A DNA stretch of 32,000 nt, from the NCBI GenBank assembly GCA_048882505.1, contig JBHLRO010000030.1, forward strand, positions 3,540-35,539. Reading direction: 5' to 3'. Origin of the DNA: Candidatus Thorarchaeota archaeon. GTDB lineage: Archaea > Asgardarchaeota > Heimdallarchaeia > Hodarchaeales > Hodarchaeaceae. Made by a program: the position numbers and the translations under genes. Positions 4,533-31,613 of the stretch are shown one piece after another (position 1 is the stretch's first letter; each line of letters starts with the position of its first letter). The notes beneath the pieces are model-generated. The model worked only from the letters and a program-made list of their open reading frames with translations. It did no database searches and had not been told where the DNA came from.

Positions 4533-4574
4533 GATTCAAACGGTAGGTTGAAAATGTATGTAACGGGGTGAATC

Positions 4575-5198
4575 TTATCCCACGGGGACTTTGGTACTGC
4601 GTTCTTTGTCAGTAGATTTCTTCAATTCGACCTCGAGGACGCCATTCTTAAATTTTGCCGAGGCTGACTCAGGAATAATGATGCAAGGGAGATCTAATTC
4701 CTTGTAATACTTTCTATTCATATCTTCAGAGCTTGCCTGAACAAGTAGACTATTTTCGGTTGTGGACAAATCGATGTTTTCTTTTTGCACCCCAGGGATT
4801 TCCGCAATCACTCTCACAACATCAGTGTCCTCGATTACATCAACTAACGGTTCTCGTTCCGCAGAAGGTTGAAAGCCTGTTCTTCCTGTCATTTGACGGG
4901 GATTATTGCCAAAACGTTCGATATGTGGGCGTCCATCGGGCCCCGTCGTCATTCGAAAACCCCATACAAAGCCTGGTGGATTATTCTCACCCTCTACAGG
5001 GGTACTCAGGCTAAATCTTCGAAACAAATCTTCTAGGAAATAATCCATCTTGTTGAAAATATCGTCAAAGGATACCCCACCGAATTGGTCAAAAAAATTC
5101 TCAAAAATATCATCGAAGGGAGTTCTCCCACTTCTACGTCGGGGATACCGCCGGTGACGGTCGTCTTCATCATTAGGGTCAGTTGTTGGATCAGACAT
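4575..5198 (-). CDS. hsp20: Archaeal small heat-shock protein Hsp20 (alpha-crystallin domain)
   Basis: PGFVWGFRMTTGPDGRPHIERFGN, REPLVDVIED, AELPG-like AEIPGVQKENI, KFKNGVLEVEL. Start moved from 5297 to ATG 5198 (MSDPTT), which has GGAGA upstream; the longer ORF start runs through the promoter region. Confidence 0.95.
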   Translation of the reverse strand: MSDPTTDPNDEDDRHRRYPRRRSGRTPFDDIFENFFDQFGGVSFDDIFNKMDYFLEDLFRRFSLSTPVEGENNPPGFVWGFRMTTGPDGRPHIERFGNNPRQMTGRTGFQPSAEREPLVDVIEDTDVVRVIAEIPGVQKENIDLSTTENSLLVQASSEDMNRKYYKELDLPCIIIPESASAKFKNGVLEVELKKSTDKERSTKVPVG

Positions 5199-5366
5199 GT
5201 AACTATCTCCATCTAACGTGAATAATGAGTCAAATAAAGGCCAATTACTTATAATTAAAATAAGTTGCTGTAAGGTGTGAATAAAAAGAAAAGACAAGGG
5301 TCATAGTCGTGAAATGGAAAATTCGTTGTTTCTATAAGATTATAAGTAGAGCATCATCCTCTAGTA

Positions 5367-6408: not shown

Positions 6409-7164
6409 TTGAGTTTAGTCGAAAGAATACGGAAGATGGAACTATCACTTGATGAATTAATACCCAAGTTCCAAGGAAGGTTAGAACTAATTCGTGAGGA
6501 TCTCAAGTTATTAATAACTGGCATAGATGATTTGAAAACGAGTATTGGCGATAATCGTCGTAAATCAAATGATTATACTAGAGAGATTTCCGATCTATCA
6601 AATGATCTTCAAACTTTTAGAAATGAAATCGCCGAAATTGAGAAGGAGATTTCCCGATTACAAGATATGGCCCATACCGTCAATATGGAAACACAGGAAT
6701 TAAACAGTGAACTAATGGCGGAGAGAAACCGGCTTGGAACTCTCGAAGGAGAAAAAAACGCGCTAGAACATAGCTTAAGTGAGCTCGAACGCGAAGAAAC
6801 AGGATTACAAGAAATTCACGATCAATTCAAACCGAAATTTGAGAAAGAAGTCGCCTTAATCAATGAACGTCATACTTCGCTCAAGAAGAAACATGATTTA
6901 CTTGGTTATCGTTTCCAAGCTATGCGCATCCTATGTTCTGAGGGCTATCTCTCGACCCCAGAGGTAAATATAGTAAGGTACCTCGCTATGAAGCCATCTT
7001 CGACCTCAAATGTAACAGAAATTAGGTCCACACTTGGGGTTGATCCGACAGCGTTATCTACGGTTCTTCAAGGCCTGGCCACACGGCAAGTACTTGAACT
7101 GGACGAGTCCTCGGGTGATATTACAATACTTGCCAAGATTGATCTATTTAACGAGGTGAAATGA
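6409..7164 (+). CDS. Long coiled-coil protein with C-terminal winged-helix-like domain (paralog A)
   Basis: About 180 aa of continuous heptad E/K/L-rich helix, then PEVNIVRYLAMK...VTEIRSTLGVDPTALSTVLQGLATRQVLELDESSGDITI (HTH plus wing). Confidence 0.7.
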   Translation: MSLVERIRKMELSLDELIPKFQGRLELIREDLKLLITGIDDLKTSIGDNRRKSNDYTREISDLSNDLQTFRNEIAEIEKEISRLQDMAHTVNMETQELNSELMAERNRLGTLEGEKNALEHSLSELEREETGLQEIHDQFKPKFEKEVALINERHTSLKKKHDLLGYRFQAMRILCSEGYLSTPEVNIVRYLAMKPSSTSNVTEIRSTLGVDPTALSTVLQGLATRQVLELDESSGDITILAKIDLFNEVK

Positions 7165-7166
7165 TC

Positions 7167-7901
7167 ATGGATACCGAGACACTACGTGAGAAGTTTATTC
7201 GATCCGAGGAAGCGCTCAACAAACTCGCAGATGACATCAAACAACTGGTTTTTAGTCGGAGTCAAGAACTACGAGATTCTCGCGATTATCTTGAAACCTT
7301 GATAAAAGAAAAAGAAGCCGTTGACTCGCAAATCACAGAGCAGGAAGCTAAAATTGCATCACTTCAAGAAGAGATCTCAAAACAAGGTGGTTTGAAAGAA
7401 AGTTTAGTTAATAGACGATCCCTGGGTTCAGAGGATACTCAAAATAAGAAGATTAGGCTAGAGGAACTTCGTCATGAAGTAGCCACATTAGGAGATTCTG
7501 TTAATTCCACCAATCGTGTGATCGAACAAATAAAGATGAACATAACTCAAAAACGCGAGCGTATTGGAGAGTTAATTCGGGCAAACCAGGAATTAGAAGA
7601 AAAACTTAGGGTCGAGATGGATGTAAAAGTGACTGAAGCCAAAAATCTAGAACAAACTGTAGCTAATATGGAATCAGAAAATGCAGTAATCTCATATCTT
7701 CTTGAAGAGTCTGCGGAGGATATTCCTGAAGTTGATATCCTAGCCTCAGTAATGCAACTAGGTGAGGCTAGTAGAGATCAATTGAAACAATCCCTCGAAG
7801 GAATTGTGTCTCCAGTTATGCTTACACGAACCCTCGGACGGATGGCTGAAAAAGGAATACTTAACTTCGATGAGTCTCGTGATATTATTAGATACGAGTG
7901 A
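7167..7901 (+). CDS. Long coiled-coil protein with C-terminal winged-helix-like domain (paralog B)
   Basis: Heptad helix, then PEVDILASVMQLGEASRDQLKQSL...MLTRTLGRMAEKGILNFDESRDII. GAGGTGA at 7153-7159 favours ATG 7167; ATG 7161 overlaps the upstream stop (ATGA). Confidence 0.7.
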   Translation: MDTETLREKFIRSEEALNKLADDIKQLVFSRSQELRDSRDYLETLIKEKEAVDSQITEQEAKIASLQEEISKQGGLKESLVNRRSLGSEDTQNKKIRLEELRHEVATLGDSVNSTNRVIEQIKMNITQKRERIGELIRANQELEEKLRVEMDVKVTEAKNLEQTVANMESENAVISYLLEESAEDIPEVDILASVMQLGEASRDQLKQSLEGIVSPVMLTRTLGRMAEKGILNFDESRDIIRYE

Positions 7902-11950: not shown

Positions 11951-14188
11951 TCATGTGGAAGATTCAAACGCATCCAAAATATACGAGTATATGGTTTTTT
12001 CTTCTCCGGACGATTTGGCAAACAATCGTCGCACAATTAATTCTGGTGTACTAGCTGCATATTGATAATACACTGGGGTACGATCCACCAAAAGTTCTAA
12101 ATCCTCCGAAAGTCCTTGCGCTTCAATGCCATCAATTCTTAGAGCCTCTTTGCTGTATTTTGCAATTTCTTGAGCGAGATGAGTAACGAAAATCCCCACA
12201 GAATGCGATGATCGTCCCAATAAATCAAGAAACGCGGCGATCACACGAGCGGATGCCCCCGGTTCAGAGATACTCTCCATTTCGTCTGCTAAAACCAAAC
12301 GAGAATGAGGGCTCATGATCATCTGCGAGAGAGTTTGCAGCGTAGTTTCGAAAGCACCTGCATCCATCTGGCCTGCCGCCTTTCTATAGTAATGGAGTTC
12401 CTTGAATCCTCCTAGCACTGCTTTTTTACACGGAATTGGGAGTCCCATCTGACCAAGAATTACCATTACGGCAAGTGAAACGATCAGGGTTGTCTTACCT
12501 CCGCTATTGGCACCAGAGAGCAGAACAATGCGTTCTCCGCTTACTACTCCATCGATCGTTCCAACTTCACCTACTGCATAAGATACTGGCTGAACCTTTG
12601 CTCCACCGCGTAGCTCCTGCTGGGCGAGAAATAGATTACGACCATTTTCAATTAATAATCCAGTTTTCGAGGATTCCCCGAGTTGAGGTAGGATTAATTG
12701 ATATGTTGAAGCGAACTTACCCAGCATAAATAGGTAATCAAGTTCCAACATGTAGTTTAATGCTTGTTTAGCGATGTTTTCATATTGTTTCAGCGCTTTG
12801 GCCAGTCTAGTCTTTAACTCAAAGGATTTGATGGCACGTCGTTGTCGAAGATATGTTGTTAAACGGGAAACAATATCCTCAACAGGATCTACGGGATATC
12901 GAAGTTCTCGTGGAAATATCCCTACAAGGTATTCAATCTCCTCGTCCTGGAGATCAAGGGCTTTGATAAGACTTTCTTCCGCCTTATTTATGATCTCTTC
13001 AACTGCCATGAAGAGTTCATCATCCAAGTATTCTCGAAGATCCGTCCGACCACTGTCGGGAGCGTATTGGGAATCTTCAGATGAAATACCCTTAATGAGG
13101 GCGAGGATTTTTTCTCCTCCGAGTTCAACTGTGGACTGTTGGAGCTTTTTCTCAAGAGCCTCATTAAGTCCGATGAGAATCTCATCGAGCTTGGTTTCAA
13201 ATAGCGTCTCTGCTCGTAATAAACGGGAGTATTCCACATTTAGGTCTGAGGTTGGTTCCCCAGATTCTTCCAAATTCCCCAGTTCTTTTCCCATTTCTCT
13301 TAGCATCTCTAGATCGAGATCCTCAATATAGGCACTTAACGCGGAGGACGGTAGAGTTTGAAGGAGATGGGTGAGACCGGCAATTGATTCAAGCGTTCTT
13401 TTGTTTCTGGCGAAAAAACTTAGGGTTTTTTCCGGAACAATCTGAACCAGATCATTCCGAGCCGATTCGCCGACCGTCACAACATTAGGAAGACTGTCAT
13501 CTAGCAGGACATCAGAACCAATCCAGATAATCTCATCATATCCTTTTGTATAATCGCCTATTCGTTCGATATCATCGATAAGAGTAACCTCACAATGATA
13601 ACCTACATCGGATGTGGTAAGATCTTTAAACAAATCCCTGTCAGGAGTGACAATCAATCTTGATGCAGTGTCAAGGCGCGCCTTTTGCTCTTTAAGAGGA
13701 GTTAGATTGCGCAAGAGAGTGTCATATTCCTTGTAGGAATGAGGGGATGCATGAATTAGTGATGCCAATTGCATTCCCAGATGAGCCACATTTTGACGTT
13801 CCCTGATTTTATCGAGTGCAGAAATAGGGAGAGGGAAGTAGAGATACAATTTTGAGCGAGCATACAGGGTATTTGCAAATTTAGCAATGATATCAATCGT
13901 CTGATTGTAGATACGGATTGCATCCTCGGTTTTCAAGAAATTCCGAACATCTTCTCCTGTTTCTTGAAAATGCAGATTGCGGCACAAGCTTAAAGCGAAT
14001 TTTTCCCCGATTCCTTCAATAGCTGAGATTTCAGCTATCCGAGATTCACGTAATGCTAGTAGAACGGCAGCTTCACTTCCAAATGCGGCTACGAGCCTAT
14101 CTGCCACGGAGGGCCCAATCCCACGAATATCTCGAAGGTTTGTTATACTCAAAGTCTGTTCCTTTCGCTTGGCTATCTTTTTAAACAA
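11951..14188 (-). CDS. MutS5-like protein: N-terminal helix-hairpin-helix pair plus C-terminal MutS ATPase domain V
   Basis: HhH motifs IRGIGPSVA and IEGIGEKFA; Walker A SGANSGGKTT; DAGAFETTL; LADEME; FVTHL. No mismatch-recognition domain I. The start may be TTG 14152. Confidence 0.88.
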   Translation of the reverse strand: MFKKIAKRKEQTLSITNLRDIRGIGPSVADRLVAAFGSEAAVLLALRESRIAEISAIEGIGEKFALSLCRNLHFQETGEDVRNFLKTEDAIRIYNQTIDIIAKFANTLYARSKLYLYFPLPISALDKIRERQNVAHLGMQLASLIHASPHSYKEYDTLLRNLTPLKEQKARLDTASRLIVTPDRDLFKDLTTSDVGYHCEVTLIDDIERIGDYTKGYDEIIWIGSDVLLDDSLPNVVTVGESARNDLVQIVPEKTLSFFARNKRTLESIAGLTHLLQTLPSSALSAYIEDLDLEMLREMGKELGNLEESGEPTSDLNVEYSRLLRAETLFETKLDEILIGLNEALEKKLQQSTVELGGEKILALIKGISSEDSQYAPDSGRTDLREYLDDELFMAVEEIINKAEESLIKALDLQDEEIEYLVGIFPRELRYPVDPVEDIVSRLTTYLRQRRAIKSFELKTRLAKALKQYENIAKQALNYMLELDYLFMLGKFASTYQLILPQLGESSKTGLLIENGRNLFLAQQELRGGAKVQPVSYAVGEVGTIDGVVSGERIVLLSGANSGGKTTLIVSLAVMVILGQMGLPIPCKKAVLGGFKELHYYRKAAGQMDAGAFETTLQTLSQMIMSPHSRLVLADEMESISEPGASARVIAAFLDLLGRSSHSVGIFVTHLAQEIAKYSKEALRIDGIEAQGLSEDLELLVDRTPVYYQYAASTPELIVRRLFAKSSGEEKTIYSYILDAFESST

Positions 14189-14342
14189 GAATCCCAGGAT
14201 TCTTTTTTGCTTTTTTCTCCTTTAACTCCCACATAGCGCTAGTAAATTCAAAATTAAAAACAATTTTCTGCTATATTTTCTCAACTCGACAGGAAATCTT
14301 CGATTCGGAATATTAACAGTCAAAGTCAAAAGCAATCGATAA

Positions 14343-15305
14343 TTAAATACCAAGTTTGGTTATTCGTTTTGGATTTACCTCACGAATAAAAGTATGTAGC
14401 TCAGAAAACGAACAATGGTCACTATATGGGAAAAAATGGACATCAAGGCGTTTGTGGGCCAATTTTATTGCCCAACCCGTCGGTGATATTCGTAGTGCGT
14501 CCGAAATTTTGGGATGTAAGGAATTATCAATTCCCTGGAGATTTTCAACCATTCTTCTACTCCCAACAAAGACTTGAACATCATCGTTGTCTGTGAAAAT
14601 ATCCCATTCCCCGCCAATCTCCTTAAAAATCTCAATTTTTTGAGGTGGGGCCCAGATTTTTTTTCCAATTGCTTTGCTGATTGTTTGAAATAAAATCTCC
14701 TTGCCTATCTGGTATGCGGACAACCAGACATTTCTTTCAGGGTAATTTCCTGGGGCATGAATTAAGGTAAGGATATCCGAAATAAGCTCCTTGCGAGAAG
14801 GAAAATCATATTTTGGATCTCTTCCATACACGTAGTCCACGTATAAATGATCAGGATTTCTTAATAATTCCATTTCCTCAATGATGACTGAACCAAGACG
14901 AAAATCGCCCGTATATACTTCTTTAGTTCCATCATTATCTTCTATAACAAACATTAAGCTGCCCAGACAATGATTGGCGTCCAGACAGTGAACCTTAAAA
15001 TCGTCAAAATCCAAAGATTGGCTAGGTTTGACGATTAAGCACTTTTCCCGGGGAATTCGATGTAAAGCTTTGATAACCGCCGCTGTTTCTCGTGTACATA
15101 CGACCGTAGAATCTTGAGCGGTAATAATATTCTTTAATCCTCTAGTATGGTCAGAATGGGCATGTGATAGGAAAAAATACCCGGATGAAGGTCTTCTGCG
15201 ATCGTTTCTACCAAAAGGAAATTCATCGAAATAACTTCTGGCGATCGAAGAATACACGTCGATTTCCTCTTGATATCTAGTGGGAAAAACCTCTTGAATG
15301 AACAA
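14343..15305 (-). CDS. SNM1/Apollo/Pso2 (DCLRE1)-like MBL beta-CASP DNA nuclease
   Basis: FFLSHAHSDHTRGL, LDANHCLGSLMF, YTGDFR, LYVD, FPSRKE, YQIGKE, PTGW and PYSDHCSFSELHTFI occur in the same order as in eukaryotic SNM1A/SNM1B. Confidence 0.8.
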   Translation of the reverse strand: MFIQEVFPTRYQEEIDVYSSIARSYFDEFPFGRNDRRRPSSGYFFLSHAHSDHTRGLKNIITAQDSTVVCTRETAAVIKALHRIPREKCLIVKPSQSLDFDDFKVHCLDANHCLGSLMFVIEDNDGTKEVYTGDFRLGSVIIEEMELLRNPDHLYVDYVYGRDPKYDFPSRKELISDILTLIHAPGNYPERNVWLSAYQIGKEILFQTISKAIGKKIWAPPQKIEIFKEIGGEWDIFTDNDDVQVFVGSRRMVENLQGIDNSLHPKISDALRISPTGWAIKLAHKRLDVHFFPYSDHCSFSELHTFIREVNPKRITKLGI

Positions 15306-18466: not shown

Positions 18467-21109
18467 ATGAAAATAGTCAGGTCATCAACCTCAGAGATCT
18501 CATTTCTAGTTGAATCTATCGATATTCCGATGCAAGAACAGGATTTCATAATAATCACTGAACCTGAGAGAGATGGGGAAGCCCCCCAGAAATATTTGGC
18601 TCAAATTGAAAAGCTGATTCAAAACAAAGAAGGTAGTATCACAGGCAGCGCAGCAATTTTGGGGATTATAAATGCCACAGACCACAGCCTATCTGCATGT
18701 CGATTTCCTATCTCAACAGATTCTCGTTTGGATCCGCCACCTGTCGGGCTTATTTCGAAAATCCTTTCTTCACGGGACGATAGAGGAATATATCTGGGAG
18801 ATGTAATTACCTCTGCAAACCAAAAAGAACCTTTTCTGATCACACCTAATTTTATTGAAAGACATTTGTTATGTGTCGCAACTACGGGAGCAGGGAAGTC
18901 ATATAGCATAGGGGTTCTACTTGAGGAAATTCTACTGAAATTTCCAGAAGCGGCTGTCATCCTGTTCGATATTCATAATGAATATTGGGGTTTAGCTCTT
19001 CCCAATGATGGCATCGAAGTAGAGCATTTAGACCACCAAGACTACTCTCCACGGGGATTTCTAGCCAATATCTTAATCTTCGAAAAAGAATCCCTAGGTC
19101 TGGGAAGAAAGTTCGATCTACCTCGCCTCCGTCGCTTGGTGGATCTAACTGCACCACAAGAAAATTCACTCGCTACGCTCCTGGATTCGCCATTGGTCCT
19201 GGAGGACTTGATTGAGAAAATCAAGCAAAGTGAGGATATGCATAGTGCCACGCGAGAGAATTTAATTTCTAAAATTCGAAAACTTCGTACTCTAAGATTT
19301 TTTGATTCTGAATTACCATTGGATGCCCTAGTTCGATCCGGACAGGTGTCATTGGTACGTTTGGATCAATTTGTGGATGAACGGAACAGGGGTATTGTGG
19401 TTAATGAGATCCTTACCCAGCTGTTTGACCAGAAGATTCGTGGAGAACTTGACACCAAAGAAGTTATTATCGTTTGCGAAGAAGCACATCGTTTTTCCTC
19501 GGAAAATGATATTTTAGCTAGAATCTCACGTGAAGGCCGTAAGTTTGGAATCTATACCGTTCTTGTCTCCCAGCGACCAGGGGATCTTCCTGATGATATC
19601 ATCGCCAACATGAACACGCTCATAGCACTTCGTGTTCGTTCAGATAAGGATCTGACGAAAATCCGACTGATGGAGGGAATTCGGGCTGAAACGGTAGCGT
19701 TACTTCCACACTTGTCTCGCGGAGAAGCGTTAATTGTCGGGCTTCGACAAGGTACTTATCGCCCAATTAAGGTTTTAGTTCGCCCACGTATGAGTAAACA
19801 TATCGACCCTCAAATAGATCATTTGCCTGATTCAATTCCTCGATATTCACCTCACAGACAGATTGCCATTAGTCCTCCTGTTACATCAGTGCCCGAGGAG
19901 ATTAAACCACCGCCCAGCTATTCCCCACCACTTATCGATGCCATCCAAGCTTTTGATTCCAAAGATTTGAGTAATCTTTTAGCGTGCGAACACGTTTTCA
20001 TCCTACATAAGCGTACTGGACTTTGTCTCTTTGATCTTAGTGTGAGCATGCTAGAAATTGATTCGCAACTCGTCTCGGGATTTTTAACAGCTATTTCAGG
20101 GTTTTTTCAGGAACTAAAGACCCAGAGTTCTGTAAAAGAAAGGCTCATTGTCCGAACTTTTGCTGAAGATATCGGCGATCGTGCTTTCGAGATAGTACAA
20201 TGTGAGGGAGAATATACGGTAACTGCTGTCATCCTTGATCGCGCCCTCAAATATCTAAACAAGTTCAAACAACGAATAAGGGATTTTGTATATGTTTTTG
20301 AAAACACATTTCGGTCTCAGCTAAATTCAGCGAGTACCAGTGGTGTTATCATACACGAGGATTTTGCCATGGCCATAAAGCTTCTCGACTACTTCATGGG
20401 CTTTTCCTTGCTCATTCCCCTGCGATTAGATCCTTTTCCACCAGAAATGGAATTTTCTGATCTCTTAGGAATTATTGATTCTCAAATGGAAAGAGTAGCT
20501 AAATCTGAGGGTCTCTTTGCTGAGGAAATCGTCAATCAGTGTCTATTGGACTCTGAATATAATCTAAGGGAAATTATCCAAGCTGTCCTCCTTTTCTTAC
20601 AGAAAGGAATCTTGGTTCTGCAGGATAAAACACGAACATTACCTCCCTTTACAGAGACTTCTAGACCCGGAGATCTCATTGAATCCTCTCCAATCGAGGA
20701 TATCAAGGTAAAGGAGGAACCTCTTCTCGAAAAGATGTCCGTTATCCCTCCTAAACTCTCTGAGGAAAACGAAACACTCCACATCGAGTGGTTGCCTGCT
20801 GTTATTGAAAAAATCACGCCAACTGCTCTACCAAATGCCTTGGTACCTGATATTTTAGAAAGAGATCTCATTTTTGAATCGGATTTAAGGATAAAAACGC
20901 ATTCCACAAGAGTAGAAACCCTTTCAAAAACTGATCTCGATAAGTGGGCTCGAATTATGGACACGAATGGCTTTATTTTGACTCAACAGAATGGAAATCC
21001 TCTTAGCGGGATAAAACTGATATTTGAATCAGAAGCGACGAAACTTGTCTGTTCGCTCGCAAAACTGAAGGACGGCGATTATATACTCATTCTTGGAGAA
21101 ATACTATGA
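18467..21109 (+). CDS. HerA-like (DUF87) ATPase fused to a longin-like domain, a winged helix and a further C-terminal domain
   Basis: HAS-barrel-like N-terminus; RHLLCVATTGAGKS; FDIHNEY; VCEEAHRF; REGRKFG; VSQRP; Pro-rich linker. Then HVFILHKRTGLCLF...DSQLVSGFLTAISGFFQEL (Asgard longin-like) and EEIVNQC...IIQAVLLFLQKGILV (wHTH). Confidence 0.82.
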   Translation: MKIVRSSTSEISFLVESIDIPMQEQDFIIITEPERDGEAPQKYLAQIEKLIQNKEGSITGSAAILGIINATDHSLSACRFPISTDSRLDPPPVGLISKILSSRDDRGIYLGDVITSANQKEPFLITPNFIERHLLCVATTGAGKSYSIGVLLEEILLKFPEAAVILFDIHNEYWGLALPNDGIEVEHLDHQDYSPRGFLANILIFEKESLGLGRKFDLPRLRRLVDLTAPQENSLATLLDSPLVLEDLIEKIKQSEDMHSATRENLISKIRKLRTLRFFDSELPLDALVRSGQVSLVRLDQFVDERNRGIVVNEILTQLFDQKIRGELDTKEVIIVCEEAHRFSSENDILARISREGRKFGIYTVLVSQRPGDLPDDIIANMNTLIALRVRSDKDLTKIRLMEGIRAETVALLPHLSRGEALIVGLRQGTYRPIKVLVRPRMSKHIDPQIDHLPDSIPRYSPHRQIAISPPVTSVPEEIKPPPSYSPPLIDAIQAFDSKDLSNLLACEHVFILHKRTGLCLFDLSVSMLEIDSQLVSGFLTAISGFFQELKTQSSVKERLIVRTFAEDIGDRAFEIVQCEGEYTVTAVILDRALKYLNKFKQRIRDFVYVFENTFRSQLNSASTSGVIIHEDFAMAIKLLDYFMGFSLLIPLRLDPFPPEMEFSDLLGIIDSQMERVAKSEGLFAEEIVNQCLLDSEYNLREIIQAVLLFLQKGILVLQDKTRTLPPFTETSRPGDLIESSPIEDIKVKEEPLLEKMSVIPPKLSEENETLHIEWLPAVIEKITPTALPNALVPDILERDLIFESDLRIKTHSTRVETLSKTDLDKWARIMDTNGFILTQQNGNPLSGIKLIFESEATKLVCSLAKLKDGDYILILGEIL

Positions 21110-21175: not shown

Positions 21176-23755
21176 TTACCCCATAAATTCCCGATCAACA
21201 ATCATTTGTTCGTCCTTGAAAATGTCCAGATTCCCAAGCCAGGTTGGAAGAACCTTCGCATAACGCTTTTCAAAATCGACAAGAAAATCATTCAGTTTTC
21301 TTCGAAGTTCGGTAGATGTAGAATCAGCAAAGATGGCTGCAAACACCCACTTGGCATACTCAATGGTCAAAACAACATCTCCATGATCGATGGTTCTGAG
21401 GAGTTGTTCACTCCTTACAGCTTCTTTGGCAAAAGAAGTTATGGCCGAAAAAAGACCAGCTACTAGGGCAGGTTCAACTATTGATTCTTTACCAAACGTA
21501 TGGGCAAGTACAGCGCGGCCATCAAGCATCATAACATGCAGAGAGTCGATTGTGACTTCTTCAAACGAATAAGCGAATTCCCTATGTAAAAGGGATAAAA
21601 CTTGCGTTAAAGGAACCTCCAAATCGAAAGTGAGCTCATCCAAAATATGGTGAATCTCTGTGTTGCTCAAACCAGTAGCATTAGAGAGTTCTCCAATGGG
21701 ACGATATTGAGTGGAGAGGGCTTGTCGTAAAACGGCGCCATCATCGATTTTCTCCCAACGCTCGTTTATTAGAGCCTTGACAGCGGGATCATCAACGGTA
21801 CCAGGGAGTCCAATAAGAATAATATCGGATTTTCGGGATATTTCACCTTCCGAAGGCAACCGTGTCATATCGGAAAAAACGGATTTATATTGGGTTTTTC
21901 CTTCTCCTTTTTGTGTTCTCGTATGGAATTGAATCCGGGCAAGGAAAAGTAAGGCGCCGAAGATAAGGATTATTGCCAAAGGATGTAGAAGATTGTAAGG
22001 AATGGAAAGGATGCCCAAAAAAGTACTACCTCCCGTTCCACGCCATATCACTGGAATTTGATGCAGCTCAGGCACCAAGAAGTAAACATCTGCAAACCTA
22101 CCTGTTTTCCACACACTCGTGAGCCATTTTAAGTTTATAACTTGACCAAAGCCGGCCAAAGTGGATTCTATTGTTATAAAAGGTGTAATCAATGGAACCC
22201 CAGCAAAACGGGGGAATCCCTGTGGAAGACCCAGGAATGTGGCCCATCCACCAGAATACCAACTGATGAGAGCCAAACTCACTGTTAAGATCGAAAGATA
22301 TGTGACAACAGCAGTTCCAATTATACTCCAATTCCATCTCCGGAAAAAAAGAAGCACAAGGGCCGCAATTAGGAATGTAGCATAATTTTGCGTTAACCAA
22401 AAGAAAGTGTCATATTGGACAGTATTAATATTGACAAAAATACTTTGTATAATCACTCGATATGCAAAAAACATGAATGCTAATAAGAAGCCAATTACAA
22501 CTCCGAATGAATAGGATTTTACCGTATTACGGACGGAAATACGTTTGAAGGAGGTTCGAACGTTTTTGATGGTTTCGATTAGCTTAATAAGAAGATAAAT
22601 CGAAAATGGTTCAAATATATCCAGGAATAGGATAAAAAAGATTGATACCATTAGGAAATATACGACAAAATAAGAAATTACAAATATCTGTTGCGAGAAA
22701 AGGATTAGGAAAAGAAACACTGCCAGGATTGACATGAACGCTCCGACTGTCGATAGACTTTGGACCATTGCTACATATAGCTGATTGCCCAAAAACTTCC
22801 CTTTTCGTGATAATCGACTGGCTTTAATCAGATATACGGAGAAAACAATCGCCGCAATATAGGCAAAGAAGATCTCCAGGAACCACCCCATAGAGGTCCC
22901 TTGTAGCAAGCTAGGATTTTCCTCCTCACCAAGAGCTAGAAGAATAGTATTAAGCAAGAATAGAGTAATCGGTAGGATAGCAATCAAGACTTTTAAGAGC
23001 TCTCGCTCATTATCCCAATCTTTCTCCTTCACGCGGATCGATATTTCTTGGAATGGAGAGTTTTCAGTTTCATATTGGATTTCTCTTATTCGTTCTCTTA
23101 CCCCACGGACTTGGAGGAATTGGTTCCGTAGATCTTCATTATCCTTTTCCAGTTCTTCTATCGCAGTAGTTAAGGCTTGAAGCTCATCCCCCGTTGCGTG
23201 CTTTTTCTGGGCCTGAAATTCTTTCAAGTTTTCTTGATTCCGTTTAATCAGTCTTTTCAAAGGTTTTCGATCATTTCGTTTATCCCCCCATGTCTGATAG
23301 AGAATTATTCCCATAGATAAGAATGGAGATATACCGAAAACAAAAGCAAGAATTACTACGGGATATGTTAGGAAGATAACGATACTGTTCACGAAATGTT
23401 GGAACAAATATTTGACCAATAGAGGAATTGGAATAAAAATCGCTCCAGTTTGGATGACGGCTTCAGAATCCCAGACTGTTGACCATTGGTTGCTGTTTGA
23501 GATAGGATAGTATTGCTGTTCCAAGTATGCGGACGGGTTAGGAACCAAGGCATTCAAGAAGCTAGGAAAAATAAAATATGCCAAATAAAAAACACAAAAA
23601 CCAATGAATCCCCTATTATAGATAGTTGCTCGTATATTATCCCTTTTTCTGCGGGTAAACAAGTATGGGATAGCTAGTACTATAAGGGGGGAGAGTGACA
23701 GGACAACCGAAACGGTCAAATTAAGGGGATCCGAAAGCGGGTCAAACAAGTCCAT
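21176..23755 (-). CDS. Polytopic membrane protein (more than 10 TM segments, cytoplasmic coiled coil) with C-terminal HTH and longin-like domain
   Basis: Many hydrophobic segments; coiled coil LKRLIKRNQENLKE...EELEKDNEDLRNQ; C-terminus LHVMMLDGRAVLAHTF...LVAGLFSAITSFAKEA...LRTIDHGDVVLTIEYAKWVFAAIFAD...LRRKLNDFLVDFEKRY is a typical Asgard longin-like fold. Confidence 0.8.
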   Translation of the reverse strand: MDLFDPLSDPLNLTVSVVLSLSPLIVLAIPYLFTRRKRDNIRATIYNRGFIGFCVFYLAYFIFPSFLNALVPNPSAYLEQQYYPISNSNQWSTVWDSEAVIQTGAIFIPIPLLVKYLFQHFVNSIVIFLTYPVVILAFVFGISPFLSMGIILYQTWGDKRNDRKPLKRLIKRNQENLKEFQAQKKHATGDELQALTTAIEELEKDNEDLRNQFLQVRGVRERIREIQYETENSPFQEISIRVKEKDWDNERELLKVLIAILPITLFLLNTILLALGEEENPSLLQGTSMGWFLEIFFAYIAAIVFSVYLIKASRLSRKGKFLGNQLYVAMVQSLSTVGAFMSILAVFLFLILFSQQIFVISYFVVYFLMVSIFFILFLDIFEPFSIYLLIKLIETIKNVRTSFKRISVRNTVKSYSFGVVIGFLLAFMFFAYRVIIQSIFVNINTVQYDTFFWLTQNYATFLIAALVLLFFRRWNWSIIGTAVVTYLSILTVSLALISWYSGGWATFLGLPQGFPRFAGVPLITPFITIESTLAGFGQVINLKWLTSVWKTGRFADVYFLVPELHQIPVIWRGTGGSTFLGILSIPYNLLHPLAIILIFGALLFLARIQFHTRTQKGEGKTQYKSVFSDMTRLPSEGEISRKSDIILIGLPGTVDDPAVKALINERWEKIDDGAVLRQALSTQYRPIGELSNATGLSNTEIHHILDELTFDLEVPLTQVLSLLHREFAYSFEEVTIDSLHVMMLDGRAVLAHTFGKESIVEPALVAGLFSAITSFAKEAVRSEQLLRTIDHGDVVLTIEYAKWVFAAIFADSTSTELRRKLNDFLVDFEKRYAKVLPTWLGNLDIFKDEQMIVDREFMG

Positions 23756-24083: not shown

Positions 24084-25841
24084 TTAACGTCTCTTTCTGT
24101 ACAATGCGACCAAGGGGGGAATTGCCAGGACTACTGAGAGCAGTTCAAATCCCGATATCGGACCCGTGGTTGTATCTCCCGGACCTGGTCCCGTAGTAGT
24201 TGTATCTCCTGCTGCGAGCGCAGCTACGGCAGAATAGGCAGGATCGTGTATGATTTCACCACCATACCACTCTGGGAACTCTGTAAAGGTGAAGTATAGC
24301 ACAAAGTTGAAGTAGACGCCTTCGTCACCAGGCGGTAAAAGACCCGGCTCCAGTTGGACAGCAAACCACTTTGTGAACTGATAGGCTAGCGCAAATTCCA
24401 ATTTAAAGTAGACTTTTGATACGTCAGGAATAGCCCAGGCCCAGTTGGTTGGATCGAAGAGGTGAATTTCTACATTTCGAGGCACCGCGGGATCAATATT
24501 CCACGGCGCGTTTTCAAGACCTTGTAGGAGATACGTATACTTGCCCGTGAATTCTGTGTAAAAGAATGTATTTCCACCTGAGTCCAAACTGATACGTCGT
24601 TGAGTAGGATTGTCTGTTTCATCTGTATGTTCTGGATTAGATAAACCAATAGATGTGGTAGCGGTGGCTACTGTTAATCCAAATCCATTCTGCATATTCA
24701 TCCGTCTCTTGGCATCATCGTTGAAATAGAAGGCCATGTTTGGAAAGAACACCGTTTTACTAGCTGGAATATTTTTACCCAAAACATCCACACTGACTAA
24801 CGATGAAGGCATTTGGAATGTGTAGTTTGGTTGGTCAGTAAATGGAGAATAATCCCAGGTTTCTGACATGTTAACCGTTTCTCCGGCGATAACCAAGAAA
24901 TTTGTTTCCCCGATGTTATAATGTGTAGTGGTGGTTCCTAGCACATGAGCGTTAGCGCCGCTGTTTATTTGCGTTGTAAATTCATATTCAAAGCTTAAAT
25001 AGTCCAAAACACTGGCAGCTACAATATTTTTTCCAAAAACAATTCCTCCTGGGTTATCAGCAACGAGATTTGCGTCTCCTAGGATGTCAATTCCGCCCAG
25101 TTCAACACTAATTGGTTGCCATAGTACGAACAGATTGGTGTAGTTTATTCCAAACCTGTATCCGTTTTCTACTGTCTCGAAGAAGGGAAAATAGTCGAAA
25201 TGATTGATTCGATAGGAATGTCCGTTGTCTGCGAATACATCATTGAAGCCATCGATCCCTTCTTGCAGGCCAAAAGTATAGCCCATGTAAATTTCATCCC
25301 CAGCGTCCATTGTGGTGTCAGTCGAATTGGAGCTGTATGCTATGAGCGACATGAAGTTATTAGTCACGAAAACTTCTTCATTATCCCAAGGTACTGTCCA
25401 ATGCTGGACTAATTGCTGGAATGGAGCAGTCGCATTAATATGGAAGATTGGGGTGCGCAAGGCGTCTTGGTACTGAGGGAACAAGGGAGAGTCCAAAACT
25501 GTCTTGATATCATCATGGAATAGATCTAGCAACGTCAGGTTGTGTTCGTACTTCTCCAAGGCGGAAAAACCCGTTTCGATACCAGAATTATTCATATATG
25601 CGAAGAAGAACTGTTTGTCTTCTGTTTCATCAGAATCTCCCGTTGCAGCACTTGCGTTATAGAGATCGCGAATTAAATCAGGATTGGCTGGATCCACGAC
25701 TGCTACGTCTACTTCTACGGCAAAGTAGTCTTCACTGAATGAGTGGCCCACAAAGGAAGATGCAGCACTGACGGGGGTGGAGATCATTACAAGGGCTAGC
25801 AGAAAGATCACTGAAAAGCCCATAAGAAGCTTCTTTTTCAT
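24084..25841 (-). CDS. Secreted cell-surface (glyco)protein with PGF-CTERM-like sorting signal
   Basis: Signal peptide MKKKLLMGFSVIFLLALVMISTPVSA; many N-x-S/T sequons; Thr/Gly/Pro linker GDTTTTGPGPGDTTTGP; terminus ISGFELLSVVLAIPPLVALYRKRR. GGTGA RBS favours ATG 25841. Confidence 0.85.
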   Translation of the reverse strand: MKKKLLMGFSVIFLLALVMISTPVSAASSFVGHSFSEDYFAVEVDVAVVDPANPDLIRDLYNASAATGDSDETEDKQFFFAYMNNSGIETGFSALEKYEHNLTLLDLFHDDIKTVLDSPLFPQYQDALRTPIFHINATAPFQQLVQHWTVPWDNEEVFVTNNFMSLIAYSSNSTDTTMDAGDEIYMGYTFGLQEGIDGFNDVFADNGHSYRINHFDYFPFFETVENGYRFGINYTNLFVLWQPISVELGGIDILGDANLVADNPGGIVFGKNIVAASVLDYLSFEYEFTTQINSGANAHVLGTTTTHYNIGETNFLVIAGETVNMSETWDYSPFTDQPNYTFQMPSSLVSVDVLGKNIPASKTVFFPNMAFYFNDDAKRRMNMQNGFGLTVATATTSIGLSNPEHTDETDNPTQRRISLDSGGNTFFYTEFTGKYTYLLQGLENAPWNIDPAVPRNVEIHLFDPTNWAWAIPDVSKVYFKLEFALAYQFTKWFAVQLEPGLLPPGDEGVYFNFVLYFTFTEFPEWYGGEIIHDPAYSAVAALAAGDTTTTGPGPGDTTTGPISGFELLSVVLAIPPLVALYRKRR

Positions 25842-25981
25842 CTCATTAATCACCTAAGAATATCTTCGGGTAAGAGCTACCCAAGTCAGATTCTAACCTC
25901 TTCCACCTACTTAGCATTATTAAAGATGTATGTAATTAAAATCCGCAATTTTGTTCCTAAGAAAGGGTTTGGCGAGTGTAT

Positions 25982-27613
25982 TTAGCCACGGCGCCATTTC
26001 TTACGCGTAAGAACCACCAAAGCTAGAACAACAGTTATGTTTGGCCATAATTGGAATGATGTGATCTGCCCATTGGATGATAGGTTCGAAGGCGGAGAGT
26101 CCTTGATTGCGTATTGAAGAGAACTAAACGCAAATGGAGTGCCTGCCCATGATGGTAATCTGAATTCACGGTTATACAGAGCATCTGTAAGATACAGATT
26201 AGATAGGTGATAAAGTTCGTCACTCGTTAGAGAACTTACATTTGAGTTCTCAACAAATCGTTTAATACTATCTACAATCAAATGCCTAACCAAGGATGTC
26301 TCTTGGGAGAAGAGCTCGGCACCTGCAAAACCGATATGTTGGTTAAATGCAATAGTTTTCGTAACAGCGGGGACAAATGATTCTGAACCAACTTCGTTTT
26401 CTCTTTGAACAACGTAGTCACGACCTGTAACGGGAGTTGACGTAAGGAGAATACCATCATGAATAATGTCGACCGCTTCTGTAATTGGGAAATCCGCTTC
26501 ATTGAGTGCGGATACAGTCTTATTTTGGTCATCAATTTCTATTTGAATGTCCTCTAATGGGTTAATGTCGTTAAAAATACCAACATTGTGACCCGTAAGG
26601 AGGGAAAGCGAAATTTCGGGGAATAGATCCAATCGGGTCTGGATATCGGAGCCTTTATACCAGGAGATGGTTTCGTTGATTGTGAAGAGCTGATTGTAGG
26701 TCTTTTCAATTTTACCTTGGGTAGAATTTGTCCAGATCGGTTCTGCAGGTAGTTCTTCATTTATTATCAAATTCGTCACTCTTCCAATTGAAACATCACT
26801 AATCGTTTCTACACCCTCAATTTCATATGAAGTATATTTTCTGATGGTTAAGGAGAAAGTTATGTTTTCGAACTGAACCAACAGAAACTTATTAGCAATA
26901 CCCACTACTGAAACTTGGCTAAAATCTATGTTCTCCGTTTGAAACAAATAGGTGATGTTTGAGTACGTCATATCTATTCGTACTCCCAATGGCAGTTCCT
27001 CCATTTCGACCAAGAGCGTACTGGATGTATCAGTCGAAAAATTACCACCATAAAGAGATTCTAGGAATTCTAGAGGAACATTCCCGTATCCCAGTTGGTA
27101 GTGAGCCGGATTAAATCCAGATCCATTAATCTTAAGGGCTATGCCTAGAAAATCCTGTGTGATGACAAAATCTTGCCCCGATGGGAGTTCGAAGTGGTGT
27201 AAATATTTGACATAGGGGACAGTAGAAGTCACTTTTAATGAATCAATCAGAGGATGCGTTCGTTTAACCTTCTCCAAGGCTAGGACAGTAGATTGGATGC
27301 TTGGAGTTTGGTGGACGACCATAGAGACGATATTATCCTCATCAAGATCTGGATCGCTGGTATCATTGAAGGGCTGGTGGGTAAATAAGTTTTGCTTGAG
27401 GTAAATTGCCTCATCAATGGAGGTCTCTTGTACATTATTGAAGTCAAATTCTACCCCAAACAAACTTTGTCCATCGAAGAAAGGATTGAGCTGGGAGAAA
27501 ACATAATTGTTACTTTCGGCTACTGCCGTGGTATTACCCGTCCAAATAAGTCCAAAAAAGAAAATGCCGGATAATCCCAGAATGAGAAGGAAGGTTTGAG
27601 AATGTTTGATTAT
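25982..27613 (-). CDS. Secreted cell-surface protein, paralog of 24084-25841; probable non-canonical ATA start
   Basis: The frame is open 50 codons upstream of the ORF-track start (27463) and adds a signal peptide (IIKHSQTFLLILGLSGIFFFGLIWTGNTTAVA|ES). Shared blocks with the neighbour: ALEK, VPYVKYLHHF/APFQQLVQHW, YSNITYLFQ/YTNLFVLWQ, LPSWAG/FPEWYG. C-terminal ITSF+TM+RKKWRRG. Confidence 0.75.
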   Translation of the reverse strand: MIKHSQTFLLILGLSGIFFFGLIWTGNTTAVAESNNYVFSQLNPFFDGQSLFGVEFDFNNVQETSIDEAIYLKQNLFTHQPFNDTSDPDLDEDNIVSMVVHQTPSIQSTVLALEKVKRTHPLIDSLKVTSTVPYVKYLHHFELPSGQDFVITQDFLGIALKINGSGFNPAHYQLGYGNVPLEFLESLYGGNFSTDTSSTLLVEMEELPLGVRIDMTYSNITYLFQTENIDFSQVSVVGIANKFLLVQFENITFSLTIRKYTSYEIEGVETISDVSIGRVTNLIINEELPAEPIWTNSTQGKIEKTYNQLFTINETISWYKGSDIQTRLDLFPEISLSLLTGHNVGIFNDINPLEDIQIEIDDQNKTVSALNEADFPITEAVDIIHDGILLTSTPVTGRDYVVQRENEVGSESFVPAVTKTIAFNQHIGFAGAELFSQETSLVRHLIVDSIKRFVENSNVSSLTSDELYHLSNLYLTDALYNREFRLPSWAGTPFAFSSLQYAIKDSPPSNLSSNGQITSFQLWPNITVVLALVVLTRKKWRRG

Positions 27614-29128
27614 CTAGCTTACCTCCAAGTAATCCTTTAACCACGTCAGGTGCTTTGATCCAATTGTATATGAAGATCTCTTCTGGTCCTTTATAATAAT
27701 TATGACCCCTAACTCCGATAATTTCTTTATGTGATGTTGTACGCTTGAATGGTGGGCATTGATCTCGTTAGAAAGCTGTGATAACGACATTGGCTTACGT
27801 TTATCCATTAATGTGCGACACAGCTCTCTTGAAAGATTGCTTTTCAAGGCTAAGGCCAATTCCGAGGTTTGCGGTGATTTTTCTCCGAGAATGTAGAAGA
27901 TATGATAACGTCCAACCTTCTCATGCGTGACGAAGTTAAAATCATCTAAGGCCTGGAGGTGCCATAGCAGTGATGAGATTCCGCATCCGATTTCTCTCTG
28001 AATCTCCCGTAAATGGGCTCCTTGTTCCCCTTTCTCCTCTAGATACTCCATTATTTGTGCCCTGAGTTCGTTATCGAGTAATTCATCTTCAGTCATCCTT
28101 CGACGTTGAGGTGAGTAGGTCACGTGTGCGATGAAGAAAAATGTACCCAAAAGCGCACCAACAATAACGTCACGACTCTTCGACATGAGTCCTGTTTGTA
28201 CCAATAAAACAAAGCCGATAATGGCTGCTCCACCAAGAACCGCCAGTCCGACAAGCTGTTCCAGTCCACCAAACTCTATTAGAGCGTTATTTCCATTGGA
28301 AGAGGGCCTCACGGTCAAGAGCGCGGTCTGTTGCAATATTGAAACAATTTCTGGTTCAGTAACCCTCCCGTTTGAATTCAGGAGGAAAAAGTTGGATCCA
28401 ATGGAACTCTCTTGAACTTCTAGAGCAAAACTCCCAATTACCACTCGCGGGCCGTCCATCCAAATTCCTGAATGAAAACCGTCAAATATTGATTCGAAGG
28501 GTTCAGGCTTGGGAATTTCCGCCAAGAGTCGAGTACGATTACTGAGCGCAACCCAAGCTGAGCTGCCAGGGAATTCAAGATTGGTTTGGGATGAATTGAT
28601 GTTTAATAGAGACATTTGAGCTTCGTCAAGTTGAATATTTAGATTGTCATAAGAACCGTCAAGTGGATACACAACGGGTGCGGTGGCGGTAATTCCAAGC
28701 TGATTAAGGATCTGAAGGGGCGTGGTATGTAAAAATCGATTTAGTATAAAGACTCCTCTTCCCGATTCTTTCCACAGCCTTATATTCACGGGCAATTTGA
28801 TTGGCAAGGGCTGATCATTGATCCACCAGATTGCGCCGACGCTCTCATTTTGAAAGAGGAATGAGCTATTGGAAAAGAGGTGCTCAATATCATAATAGGT
28901 CGCTTGTCGCCCAGAATCGGCCACTAAGCTTTCACCCAATGATTTGTCCTTAAAAGACCCGTAAAATATCGCAATCTTTTCTAAATCAGAGAAGTTTTGC
29001 TCTGTCCTAGCAAATAGCCCCGTTCCAAGACTAGAAAAGAGAATTCCCCAAAAAACTAGAAAAAAGAAAACGATATGAATTATCGGGGCTCTTACTTCCA
29101 ACTTCATGATTTCGCTACCCATTTTCAA
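27614..29128 (-). CDS. Membrane-anchored transcription regulator: extracellular domain, two TM helices, tandem C-terminal wHTH (COG3398-like)
   Basis: N-terminal hydrophobic signal, about 260 aa ectodomain, TM segments LVGLAVLGGAAIIGFVLLV and VIVGALLGTFFFIA. Then LDNELRAQIMEYL...HLREIQREIGCGISSLLWHLQAL and LSQLSNEINAHHSSVQHHIKKL. The start may be ATG 29122 or 29107. Confidence 0.8.
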   Translation of the reverse strand: MKMGSEIMKLEVRAPIIHIVFFFLVFWGILFSSLGTGLFARTEQNFSDLEKIAIFYGSFKDKSLGESLVADSGRQATYYDIEHLFSNSSFLFQNESVGAIWWINDQPLPIKLPVNIRLWKESGRGVFILNRFLHTTPLQILNQLGITATAPVVYPLDGSYDNLNIQLDEAQMSLLNINSSQTNLEFPGSSAWVALSNRTRLLAEIPKPEPFESIFDGFHSGIWMDGPRVVIGSFALEVQESSIGSNFFLLNSNGRVTEPEIVSILQQTALLTVRPSSNGNNALIEFGGLEQLVGLAVLGGAAIIGFVLLVQTGLMSKSRDVIVGALLGTFFFIAHVTYSPQRRRMTEDELLDNELRAQIMEYLEEKGEQGAHLREIQREIGCGISSLLWHLQALDDFNFVTHEKVGRYHIFYILGEKSPQTSELALALKSNLSRELCRTLMDKRKPMSLSQLSNEINAHHSSVQHHIKKLSELGVIIIIKDQKRSSYTIGSKHLTWLKDYLEVS

Positions 29129-29708: not shown

Positions 29709-30022
29709 TTTATATTAAAAGAAGATGTTGGCTCCAAATCTCTTTGACAGTTTATCAACTATAATCTTATAACAGGGAGAAAAGACGGGGTACCTTGAAA
29801 GGCCAGTTATGAATCGTTGGTTTATTGAAATAATTTAAATATTCAATTATTGAGGGCAAGATAGGGCTTTTCGGACTATTCATTTGAGGCCCCTTATATA
29901 GAACACCCACCATCATCCTAGTGTAGAGCATTTTGAATATTTCCATCTGCTCCATTAGGTGTAAGGAAACCAAAATCCCTATATCACCTTTCACATAAGA
30001 TTCTATGGAGGAATCGCTAGAA

Positions 30023-30460
30023 ATGAAACTGATTCGAAATATACCAAAAAAACGGCGGGCTGTAAGCCCGATTCTAGCCGCAATACTCTTGATTGGGCTT
30101 GCTATAACAGCCGGGGCGGTCCTTTTCGTCGTTGTTCTCCCGTTGATAACGGCTCCTGGAAGTGGAGTCGTTTTTGATTCGGGAACAACTGAGCTTACAG
30201 CTAATTCGGTTCACGTTGTGCTCAGAAACGAAGGATCCGAAATAGTAACAGTCACAGGCATTAGTGTAAAAAATGGTACAGATACGGCCGCTATTAATAC
30301 CACATTCAACTCCTTTTCAATCGGTGTAGGACAGGGGGCCATCAAAGACTACACTTTCGCAACGGGCCTTTCGTCCGGGCCTTACACCATAGAAGCGACA
30401 TACTATATTGGAACAGATACGACAAACACAGGAACCGCAACTCTGAACACAAACATCTGA
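30023..30460 (+). CDS. Archaeal type IV pilin / archaellin-like protein with class III signal peptide
   Basis: KKRRA|VSPILAAILLIGLAITAGAVLF (PibD/FlaK-type cleavage site plus hydrophobic helix), followed by a small beta-rich Thr/Ser-rich domain. GGAGG precedes ATG 30023. Confidence 0.88.
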   Translation: MKLIRNIPKKRRAVSPILAAILLIGLAITAGAVLFVVVLPLITAPGSGVVFDSGTTELTANSVHVVLRNEGSEIVTVTGISVKNGTDTAAINTTFNSFSIGVGQGAIKDYTFATGLSSGPYTIEATYYIGTDTTNTGTATLNTNI

Positions 30461-30570: not shown

Positions 30571-31032
30571 CTATTTGAACTGTACATTGGCCGCCCGACT
30601 TCTCACATACTTATTAAAGACCATTTTCCCATCAGTCAAAACGCTACTTAAATTCCTACCAAATTCGGACCAGTATTTGATAAGCGACTGTCGTTCTTGC
30701 CGAGTCTTGACCATTTCAGGGGAGAGGAAAAACGAGATCTCAAAACCTTCTTCTGGAGTTTTCATTACCGTGAGGTGACGATCAGAATTGCGAGCCAGCT
30801 CGGTACGCATTCGATCGAAAATAAACTGCTCAACAGGGTCGTTAATTGCGATTTTCAAGGAAACGACGGCAGAATTACCGTGTCGAATTACTTCCCCATT
30901 TTCAAAAGGGATTACCTCTCGTGGTACCCCCTTACAACACTCATCATCTGGTTCCATAACGCAAATTGGCTCTCTTCCTCCGCTTTTACAATCTAGTGGC
31001 TCTAAAATCAAATCCGTCTCTGATAATGGCAA
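30571..31032 (-). CDS. ARPC4 (Arp2/3 complex p20 subunit)-like protein
   Basis: NSAVVSLKIAINDPVEQFIFDRMRTELARNSDRHLTVMKTPEEGFEISFFL...GKMVFNKYVRSRA aligns by eye with human ARPC4 [51 protein letters not shown]...MKLSVNARARIVA. Confidence 0.78.
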   Translation of the reverse strand: MPLSETDLILEPLDCKSGGREPICVMEPDDECCKGVPREVIPFENGEVIRHGNSAVVSLKIAINDPVEQFIFDRMRTELARNSDRHLTVMKTPEEGFEISFFLSPEMVKTRQERQSLIKYWSEFGRNLSSVLTDGKMVFNKYVRSRAANVQFK

Positions 31033-31184: not shown

Positions 31185-31613
31185 TCAAAAATCGCGCAGA
31201 TTGAGCATTTTCTTACGGGTGGAGGTAATGAGATAGTGCATCAAACCGAGCTTCACGCTTGGTTCTGTTATTAGAACTAATATTGCACCTTCCACCTTAG
31301 AAAGTAATCCTAGACCTTGTGGTGTTTGAACATGGATGAAATCGATTTCTGTACCAAGATTAAGTTGGATGCAAGCACTAGAAAACGTACTAAATATTCC
31401 TGCAACCATAGCTGAAGCTAAGGTCTCCACTTCATCACTTATGGGTTTTGTTTTGGCACATAAGATGGGAAATCCTTCTTCACTTACTAAAAGAGCTTTT
31501 CTCACTCCTTGAACGGCCCCAAGTCCATCTAAGATACGTTGGACACGGGTCATTGATGAATTTTCATCCTCTGGTTTGCCGGCAAGTTGATCATAAAGCG
31601 CCAATATAATCAC
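31185..31613 (-). CDS. Roadblock/LC7 (MglB-like) domain protein
   Basis: VQGVRKALLVSEEGFPI...TLASAMVAGIFST...IHVQTPQGLGLL...LVLITEPSVKLGLM. The start may be ATG 31553. Confidence 0.88.
   Translation of the reverse strand: MIILALYDQLAGKPEDENSSMTRVQRILDGLGAVQGVRKALLVSEEGFPILCAKTKPISDEVETLASAMVAGIFSTFSSACIQLNLGTEIDFIHVQTPQGLGLLSKVEGAILVLITEPSVKLGLMHYLITSTRKKMLNLRDF

Follow-up and report, generated by a model that had tools for sequence, protein, structure and literature searches.

A HerA-type motor fused to a longin arm in Hodarchaeales: predicted independence from NurA, exchange of the motor and possible docking at the membrane

What a longin, a docking domain of the kind that eukaryotes use in membrane traffic, might do on what is most likely a ring-shaped DNA-pumping motor is the question raised by a gene of the Hodarchaeales, an archaeal order proposed among the closest relatives of eukaryotes. 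The gene lies in a window of 32,000 nucleotides (the whole stretch of contig JBHLRO010000030.1 that was analysed). Its product comprises successively a HAS barrel, a HerA ATPase, a longin, a winged helix and a terminal domain of about 105 residues, hereafter CT (Table 1). The first-pass annotation of this DNA had described the gene as a fusion, to be checked against a lost stop codon, and the fusion was borne out. The frame contains no internal stop, it is open over its full length in 17 of 18 genomes of the same genus (the Hodarchaeales genus including Ca. Hodarchaeum mangrovi), the 18th being interrupted by a contig end, and 43 near-full-length homologues were collected. Contigs from a second study span the motor-longin junction (X2, window 19648-20016; X1 may be the source). 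A lost stop codon or an assembly artefact is ruled out by these observations and the fusion is a real gene, present in single copy in 22 of 22 genomes of the genus. No transmembrane segment was predicted in the protein and no RNA dataset covering the window was listed.

Table 1. Positions, in the window, of the parts of the fusion gene and of its convergent neighbour.
Feature	Position	Strand	Basis or remark
Whole fusion gene, 880 aa, soluble	18467..21109	+	ORF scan; TM segment search
HAS barrel, aa 1-100, without the ~27-residue helix and loop of NurA-linked HerAs	18467..18766	+	Alignment with NurA-linked HerAs
HerA/DUF87 RecA-like ATPase with helical-bundle insert, aa 101-450	18767..19816	+	Pfam; alignment to solved HerAs
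Walker A, aa 138-145	18878..18901	+	Motif, invariant in homologues
Helical-bundle DNA-contact helix (predicted)	19250..19273	+	Alignment to T. kodakarensis (Tko) HerA
Walker B (338-341) through R358/K359	19478..19543	+	R358/K359 align to Tko R466/K467
Variable linker 1, 37-50 aa	19829..19951	+	Pro-rich in window genome, acidic in most orthologues
Longin domain, aa 497-650	19955..20416	+	Predicted structure superposed on solved longins
Winged-helix domain, net charge about -7 in genus	20444..20632	+	Predicted structure
Acidic disordered linker 2	20648..20782	+	Predicted structure, composition
CT domain, aa ~773-880	20783..21109	+	Alpha/beta fold, no known family
Membrane protein, 859 aa, ~10 TM, C-terminal longin; candidate docking partner	21176..23755	-	Convergent; same phyletic range

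The motor belongs, as judged from its sequence, to the HerA (DUF87) clade of the HerA/FtsK superfamily (Pfam DUF87, E 3e-17, 63.9 bits for a cut-off of 23.2). It had been described as intact and indeed its four motifs (Walker A, EEAH, REGRKFG at 355-361 and SQRP at 368-371) are invariant, the Walker A, the Walker B, the Arg-Lys pair and the conserved Gln being retained in 43/43 homologues. The closest solved relatives are the archaeal HerAs of Thermococcus kodakarensis (9x1l) and Sulfolobus solfataricus (4d2i). In the former, Q262, T325, R328 and K332 contact DNA, and ATP hydrolysis requires R466/K467 (PMC12977600). In the alignment, T262 and K269 of the fusion correspond to T325 and K332, and R358/K359 to R466/K467; these four residues, which match T. 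kodakarensis residues needed for dsDNA processing and DNA-stimulated ATPase, are invariant in the 43 homologues. Q231 is also invariant and is the probable equivalent of Q262. The R328 position is not kept, being N or T in the fused motor, and the adjacent R263 is invariant. Because its DNA-contact residues are invariant, the motor most likely still grips double-stranded DNA, and it would assemble into a hexameric ring with DNA-stimulated ATPase and translocation activities. Of the two roles first envisaged for the protein, a DNA translocase under longin-type control fits better on this account than a motor recruited to GTPase signalling.

HerA ATPases are also found in anti-virus defence, and a Nezha/Sir2-HerA or DUF4297-HerA type system, in which the arm would be the sensor, was considered. 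PADLOC HerA models match the ATPase core (E 9e-35), and the HerA-NurA of T. kodakarensis was proposed to destroy foreign DNA (PMC12977600). Nevertheless, the matches cover the core only, with 60-63 bits where the NCBIfam cut-offs are 800-850, no effector gene is found nearby, and the fusion gene is a single-copy gene at a fixed housekeeping locus instead of being patchily distributed. A defence function is highly improbable.

The relation to NurA was addressed through the N-terminal barrel. No match to the Pfam HAS-barrel profile was obtained with the window protein, which nonetheless aligns strand by strand with the barrels of unfused HerAs, minus a clean deletion of 27 residues. The deleted segment is missing in 5/5 fused copies aligned and present in 3/3 unfused HerAs. 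In T. kodakarensis, HerA binds NurA through the alpha-1 helix of the HAS domain (PMC12977600). The profile alignment of the motor with T. kodakarensis HerA begins at residue 102, and from the position of the deletion just before this residue we infer that the missing segment is the NurA-binding element. Its deletion provides a structural reason for the independence from NurA that was initially suggested by the gene neighbourhood: nurA, mre11 and rad50 are absent from the window ORFs scanned, as had been reported, nurA is absent from the locus in relatives, and the NurA matches of the genome are located on other contigs. Two nurA-herA pairs occur elsewhere in the genome, one of them with mre11/rad50-like genes. 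By these sequence features the fused motor is not a member of the HerA-NurA end-resection system and is most likely a HerA paralogue that grips dsDNA without NurA. Separately, a third unfused HerA (contig C61 of G000; L159 1268-4251) adjoins an ORF of 508 aa whose start is HTH-like and which has no Pfam match; this ORF could encode a highly divergent NurA or a partner of another kind. In the tree this HerA was labelled 'nurA_C61', which is misleading, as its neighbour has no Pfam NurA match.

The structure of the C-terminal arm (residues 490-880) was predicted with AlphaFold using the 43 homologues (pLDDT 78.5), yielding three domains joined by flexible linkers. None of the three pieces matched a Pfam family at cut-off or a PDB entry by sequence. 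The linker that follows the motor had been called Pro-rich, which holds for the window genome (24% Pro) but not for its orthologues, where it averages 9% Pro and is acidic and variable. The longin-like domain, originally placed at about 19970-20400, is well supported by the model. VIA matches were synbindin (Z 10.7, rmsd 3.1, 122 aligned), the Loki longin 8yqg (10.4) and Sec22 (10.2), nearly all top structure matches are longins, and the topology of two strands, a helix, three strands and two helices is recovered. The predicted structure thus has a true longin fold. The domain is conserved to the same degree as the ATPase core and is similarly constrained, with 9 amino-acid for 27 synonymous codon differences, compared with 22 for 69 in the ATPase. 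Longins dimerise through a long central helix, and this helix is kept in the fused longin. In 19 diverse copies, the Gly of the Gly-Pro motif at strands 1-2 is present without the following Pro, and no conserved Arg is found in the turn between strands 4 and 5, which we take to be the position of the GAP arginine finger. The sequence of the fused longin is accordingly not that of the GAP type (FLCN/SMCR8/NPRL2).

A wHTH had been noticed after the longin. Residues ~660-722 do adopt a winged-helix topology in the model, with weaker support than the longin (Z 6.7 to Nse1-Nse3-Nse4, rmsd 2.5, 60 aligned). DNA binding by this domain is disfavoured by its acidic charge in the genus (mean net charge -6.7), and it is not basic elsewhere; because it is acidic, it probably contacts protein rather than DNA. 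The further alpha/beta domain that had been announced, CT, is confidently folded when predicted alone (pLDDT 90). Its comparison with known structures gave nothing above background and no Foldseek match at E <= 0.001. Roadblock, longin and KA1 identities were tried and none matched above background, the several rows obtained with KA1 domains at Z 4.1-5.2 lying within it. CT was found in 22/22 genomes of the genus, in 1/2 genomes of the sister family, with a weaker copy in the second, and in 0/377 other Asgard genomes searched; among the genomes searched, it was found only in Hodarchaeales. Complex prediction with two copies of CT (score 0.00, mark 0.42) gave no evidence either way, so that self-association of CT is something we infer.

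An exhaustive search for the arm retrieved longin-wH-CT on three motors of the HerA superfamily, each of them HerA-type. Type A is the HAS-HerA of the window, type B lacks the HAS barrel and is related to DUF853-annotated proteins, and type C is represented by one 5'-truncated contig (P0053). In the motor tree, type A branches with NurA-linked HerA (86/80) and type B with free archaeal ATPases, the split between them being supported at 100/100. A single origin of the fused motors was rejected (p-AU 2e-5 under LG+G4, with long branches present). The arm and motor trees are in conflict (p-AU 1e-4, 3e-15 and 0.002), neither motor type forming a clade on the arm tree (1e-4 and 3e-15). Type-B fusions occupy the locus of the window, beside MptE/PTPS and/or the convergent membrane-longin gene, and two of the three motor types are thus found at the same locus. 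These phylogenies indicate that the motor was exchanged between unrelated types while the arm was retained. The contrast between types A and B is drawn from many genomes. The clearest swap is seen in one Logan contig, P0048 (run SRR21285597), whose arm is 37% identical to that of the window and whose neighbour's tree places it beside the genus (100/100); its motor shares 64% identity with that of P0056, a distant relative, and can hardly be aligned with the window motor. No further P0048-like copies were found in metagenome contigs. The type-B fusion orthologue P0063 was recovered from run DRR620298, an RNA-seq of the cultured strain HC1, on a 67-kb contig that demonstrates the presence of the gene and not its transcription.

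The two parts of the protein can also be encoded separately. In G019, a motor-less longin-wH-CT gene adjoins MptE and a type-B motor ending in CT is found elsewhere; GCA_054014235.1 carries the same pair of genes (P0055 and P0204), and the two splits are one event in two related genomes. A motor-CT gene is present in G020, where no longin-wH-CT gene was found (80% complete, 860 contigs). CT on the separate motors scored 24, 22 and 12 bits for a shuffled maximum of 5.5. Since both halves keep CT, this domain might re-join them and hold arm and motor together as separate proteins. Motor-less arms exist in two more lineages, bringing split or motor-less forms to at least three lineages. The first-pass annotation had stated that consistently split orthologues would count against the fusion; they are not so overall, and the architecture it described stands, but it had foreseen neither the split and motor-less forms nor the interchangeability of the motor. 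Type-B HerA-like ATPases of other Heimdallarchaeia (L051 3726-6794, L052 1115-4138, L046, L049) bear other long tails, with a coiled coil and a zinc-finger-like, Cys-rich end in the forms of ~1000 aa and an HTH-like segment in those of ~740 aa. The type-B motor seems to exchange its C-terminal arms readily.

These rearrangements bear on the possibility that domains were loosely shuffled and that a longin-wH tail, promiscuous among Asgard proteins, landed on HerA with little functional coupling. Lineage-restricted multidomain shuffling, including longin fusions, is a known pattern of Asgard signature proteins (bioRxiv 2020.10.19.343400), the genome encodes ~30 longin proteins, and motor-less arms occur in several lineages. 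The strong constraint on a gene that is single-copy throughout the genus, the HerA type of all three motors and the retention of CT on the separate motor in two genomes argue in the other direction, and we regard such shuffling as rather unlikely.

The gene convergent to the fusion encodes a polytopic protein whose terminal longin (aa ~740-859) is homologous to the fused longin (HHalign 92%). This neighbour is found in 22/22 genomes of the genus, 2/2 of the sister family and 0/57 other genomes of the class, and it adjoins the fusion gene in 20/20 loci of the genus and in four type-B loci. The split lineage and two further ones have lost this adjacency. Being convergent, the two genes are not co-transcribed. 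The housekeeping genes MptE, PTPS and TrxB are also syntenic with the fusion gene, and the synteny with the neighbour may reflect vertical descent alone. Further along (24084-29128, minus strand), a block conserved with the membrane-longin gene encodes two secreted-looking, C-terminally anchored proteins (589 and 493 aa) with no Pfam match and a membrane-anchored double-HTH protein of 504 aa; in strain HC1 the block is partly retained. A homologue of ARPC4 (30571-31032, Pfam E 1e-8) directly adjoins a roadblock gene (31185-31613) and lies beside a pilin-like gene with a weak match only (30005-30460). On the other side of the fusion gene, a CDC48/VCP gene (2322-5297, minus strand) adjoins an Hsp20 gene and a PAC2 proteasome-chaperone gene, an ordinary arrangement. 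On the plus strand (6409-7901), genes for a coiled-coil protein with a C-terminal HTH and for a helical-repeat-like protein without confident family come before a radical SAM gene. A gene for a MutS-domain-V protein with N-terminal HhH motifs adjoins one for an SNM1/DRMBL-like metallo-beta-lactamase (11951-15305, minus strand), and this pair is syntenic across the genus.

Could the longin instead connect the motor to a small GTPase? A motor for DNA repair or recombination that stays in the cytosol, undocked from the membrane, with a small GTPase as its switch on a longin-dimer platform, would agree with the branching of the motor among NurA-linked HerAs, with its conserved DNA-contact residues, with the MutS-type and SNM1-like genes within 7 kb and with the ability of longin dimers to bind small GTPases. 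Arf-like genes also lie near three related loci; at one of them (L158 2175-4906) two Arf-like GTPase genes in tandem are convergent with a motor-less longin-wH-CT gene, an arrangement that recurs, with one such GTPase gene or more, in a close relative. This adjacency was not counted, because 63 Arf-family matches in 4.3 Mb of genome give about 0.2 expected per 16 kb. No small GTPase gene was seen in the window, the longin has neither the Gly-Pro motif nor the conserved GAP arginine, and the NurA-binding segment is lost. A GTPase-switched motor is therefore unlikely, and the initial proposal stands for its domain calls and for NurA-independence but not for its link to GTPase signalling.

In a broad formulation, which we consider fairly probable, the fusion is a DNA motor that works without NurA and whose position or control depends on a protein-contact arm. 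More specifically, in the reading that we favour, though tentatively, the dsDNA motor would be docked at the membrane by longin pairing, most likely with the 859-aa neighbour. A soluble, ATP-driven HerA ring would act on double-stranded DNA without NurA, its flexible longin-wH-CT arms directing it to a place on the inner side of the membrane. There the helix of the fused longin would pair with the longin tail of a membrane protein, the neighbour being the best candidate, and DNA would be pumped or tethered at the membrane, as by CedB/CedD, VirB4 and FtsK at their membrane partners. Consistent with this docking, the longin is carried on long flexible linkers without a membrane anchor of its own, the arm was repeatedly re-joined with a HerA-type motor, and its closest longin-wH relatives are mostly tails of membrane proteins, 94 of 143 having an upstream hydrophobic segment. 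Longins are known to act as heterodimers in TRAPP and GAP complexes (PMC10933270, PMC12290439). Against it, any of the ~30 other longin proteins of the genome could be the partner, the genes are convergent and flanked by syntenic housekeeping genes, their adjacency was lost in some lineages, arms occur without motors, the equivalent of T. kodakarensis R328 is lost, and no clear equivalent of the helix that contacts DNA is seen in type-B motors.

The same surface-protein context would suit an ATPase of the VirB4, TrwB or EccC kind, handling proteins and not DNA, which would take hold of longin-wH tails so as to assemble, export or remodel surface or membrane proteins. The longin-wH module is mostly the cytoplasmic tail of large surface proteins, the products of the three genes downstream are membrane proteins or secreted, anchored ones, the winged helix is acidic, and in other lineages a HAS-less motor without clear DNA helix takes the same position. 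The window motor nevertheless keeps the invariant residues that contact DNA phosphates, and some free type-B relatives carry HTH domains. Handling of proteins is quite unlikely.

Docking at the membrane might be generalised to a machine common to the whole order Hodarchaeales: a eukaryote-type longin adaptor would hold exchangeable DNA pumps of the HerA family on a dedicated membrane protein so as to anchor, segregate or transport DNA there, the new CT domain coupling motor and adaptor whether fused or in trans. This extension is doubtful though conceivable; if true, it would functionally link trafficking-type adaptors to chromosome or DNA handling in a lineage next to eukaryotes. If the arm is loosely attached cargo, the fusion is one more case of Asgard domain shuffling. 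Its features suggest, without proving it, an action of the fusion on DNA at the cell membrane. To the question of the role that longins play in Asgard cells, which have no organelles, it brings an enzyme whose activity (ATPase, DNA translocation) is simple to read out. The fusion is fixed in the genus and occurs in several further lineages of Hodarchaeales. Strain HC1, in whose data an orthologue was found, is in culture, with RNA-seq and proteome (PXD059994) datasets available. The motor swaps and split forms, taken as natural experiments, suggest that the functional unit being conserved is the longin-wH-CT arm. One arm on three motors, two of them at the same locus, and its separation into longin-wH-CT and motor-CT genes are new; among the openly accessible papers searched, none joins Asgard, longin and HerA. 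The fusion is apparently an undescribed variant of a known motor, with an unusual evolution, a cultured host and a predicted function.

Compared with known systems, the fusion shares with the archaeal repair HerAs (4d2i, 9x1l) the HAS barrel, RecA-like core, helical bundle, Walker A/B, Arg-Lys pair and most DNA-contact residues, and its motor has 32% identity with an ordinary HerA (~500 aa) from Heimdallarchaeia. It differs from them by a 430-aa longin-wH-CT arm, by the lack of the NurA-binding segment and of a nurA neighbour, and by the replacement of the motor by other HerA subfamilies in other lineages. Its longin has the fold of synbindin/TRAPPC4, Sec22, VAMP7, AP sigma/mu and the Loki roadblock-longin 8yqg (Z 9-10.7 over 113-155 residues) with ~10% identity; unlike these it is joined to a ring ATPase and a winged helix, and unlike the GAP longins FLCN, SMCR8 and NPRL2 it lacks the Gly-Pro/arginine signature. 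The homologous Asgard longin-wH tail module, with 143 representatives, is mostly the C-terminal tail of membrane-anchored proteins, whereas that of the fusion is soluble, internal between motor and CT, and single-copy. In other Hodarchaeales, strain HC1 among them, the type-B DUF853-annotated HerA-like ATPases bear this arm at this locus, with motors of a separate clade. CedB, CedD, TraD/TrwB and FtsK belong to the same ATPase superfamily, and the fusion has a polytopic membrane protein as conserved neighbour; its similarity to CedD (61 bits, cut-off 600) and CedB (40 bits, cut-off 700) is weak, no Ced or T4SS genes were recognised, and its ATPase, unlike Ced/VirB4-type transporters, has no transmembrane anchor. 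We know of no longin in the CedB, CedD, TraD/TrwB or FtsK systems. By these sequence measures the fusion is neither a Ced-type transporter nor an anti-phage HerA, and by analogy it may work like CedB, VirB4 or FtsK, the longin replacing the membrane anchor.
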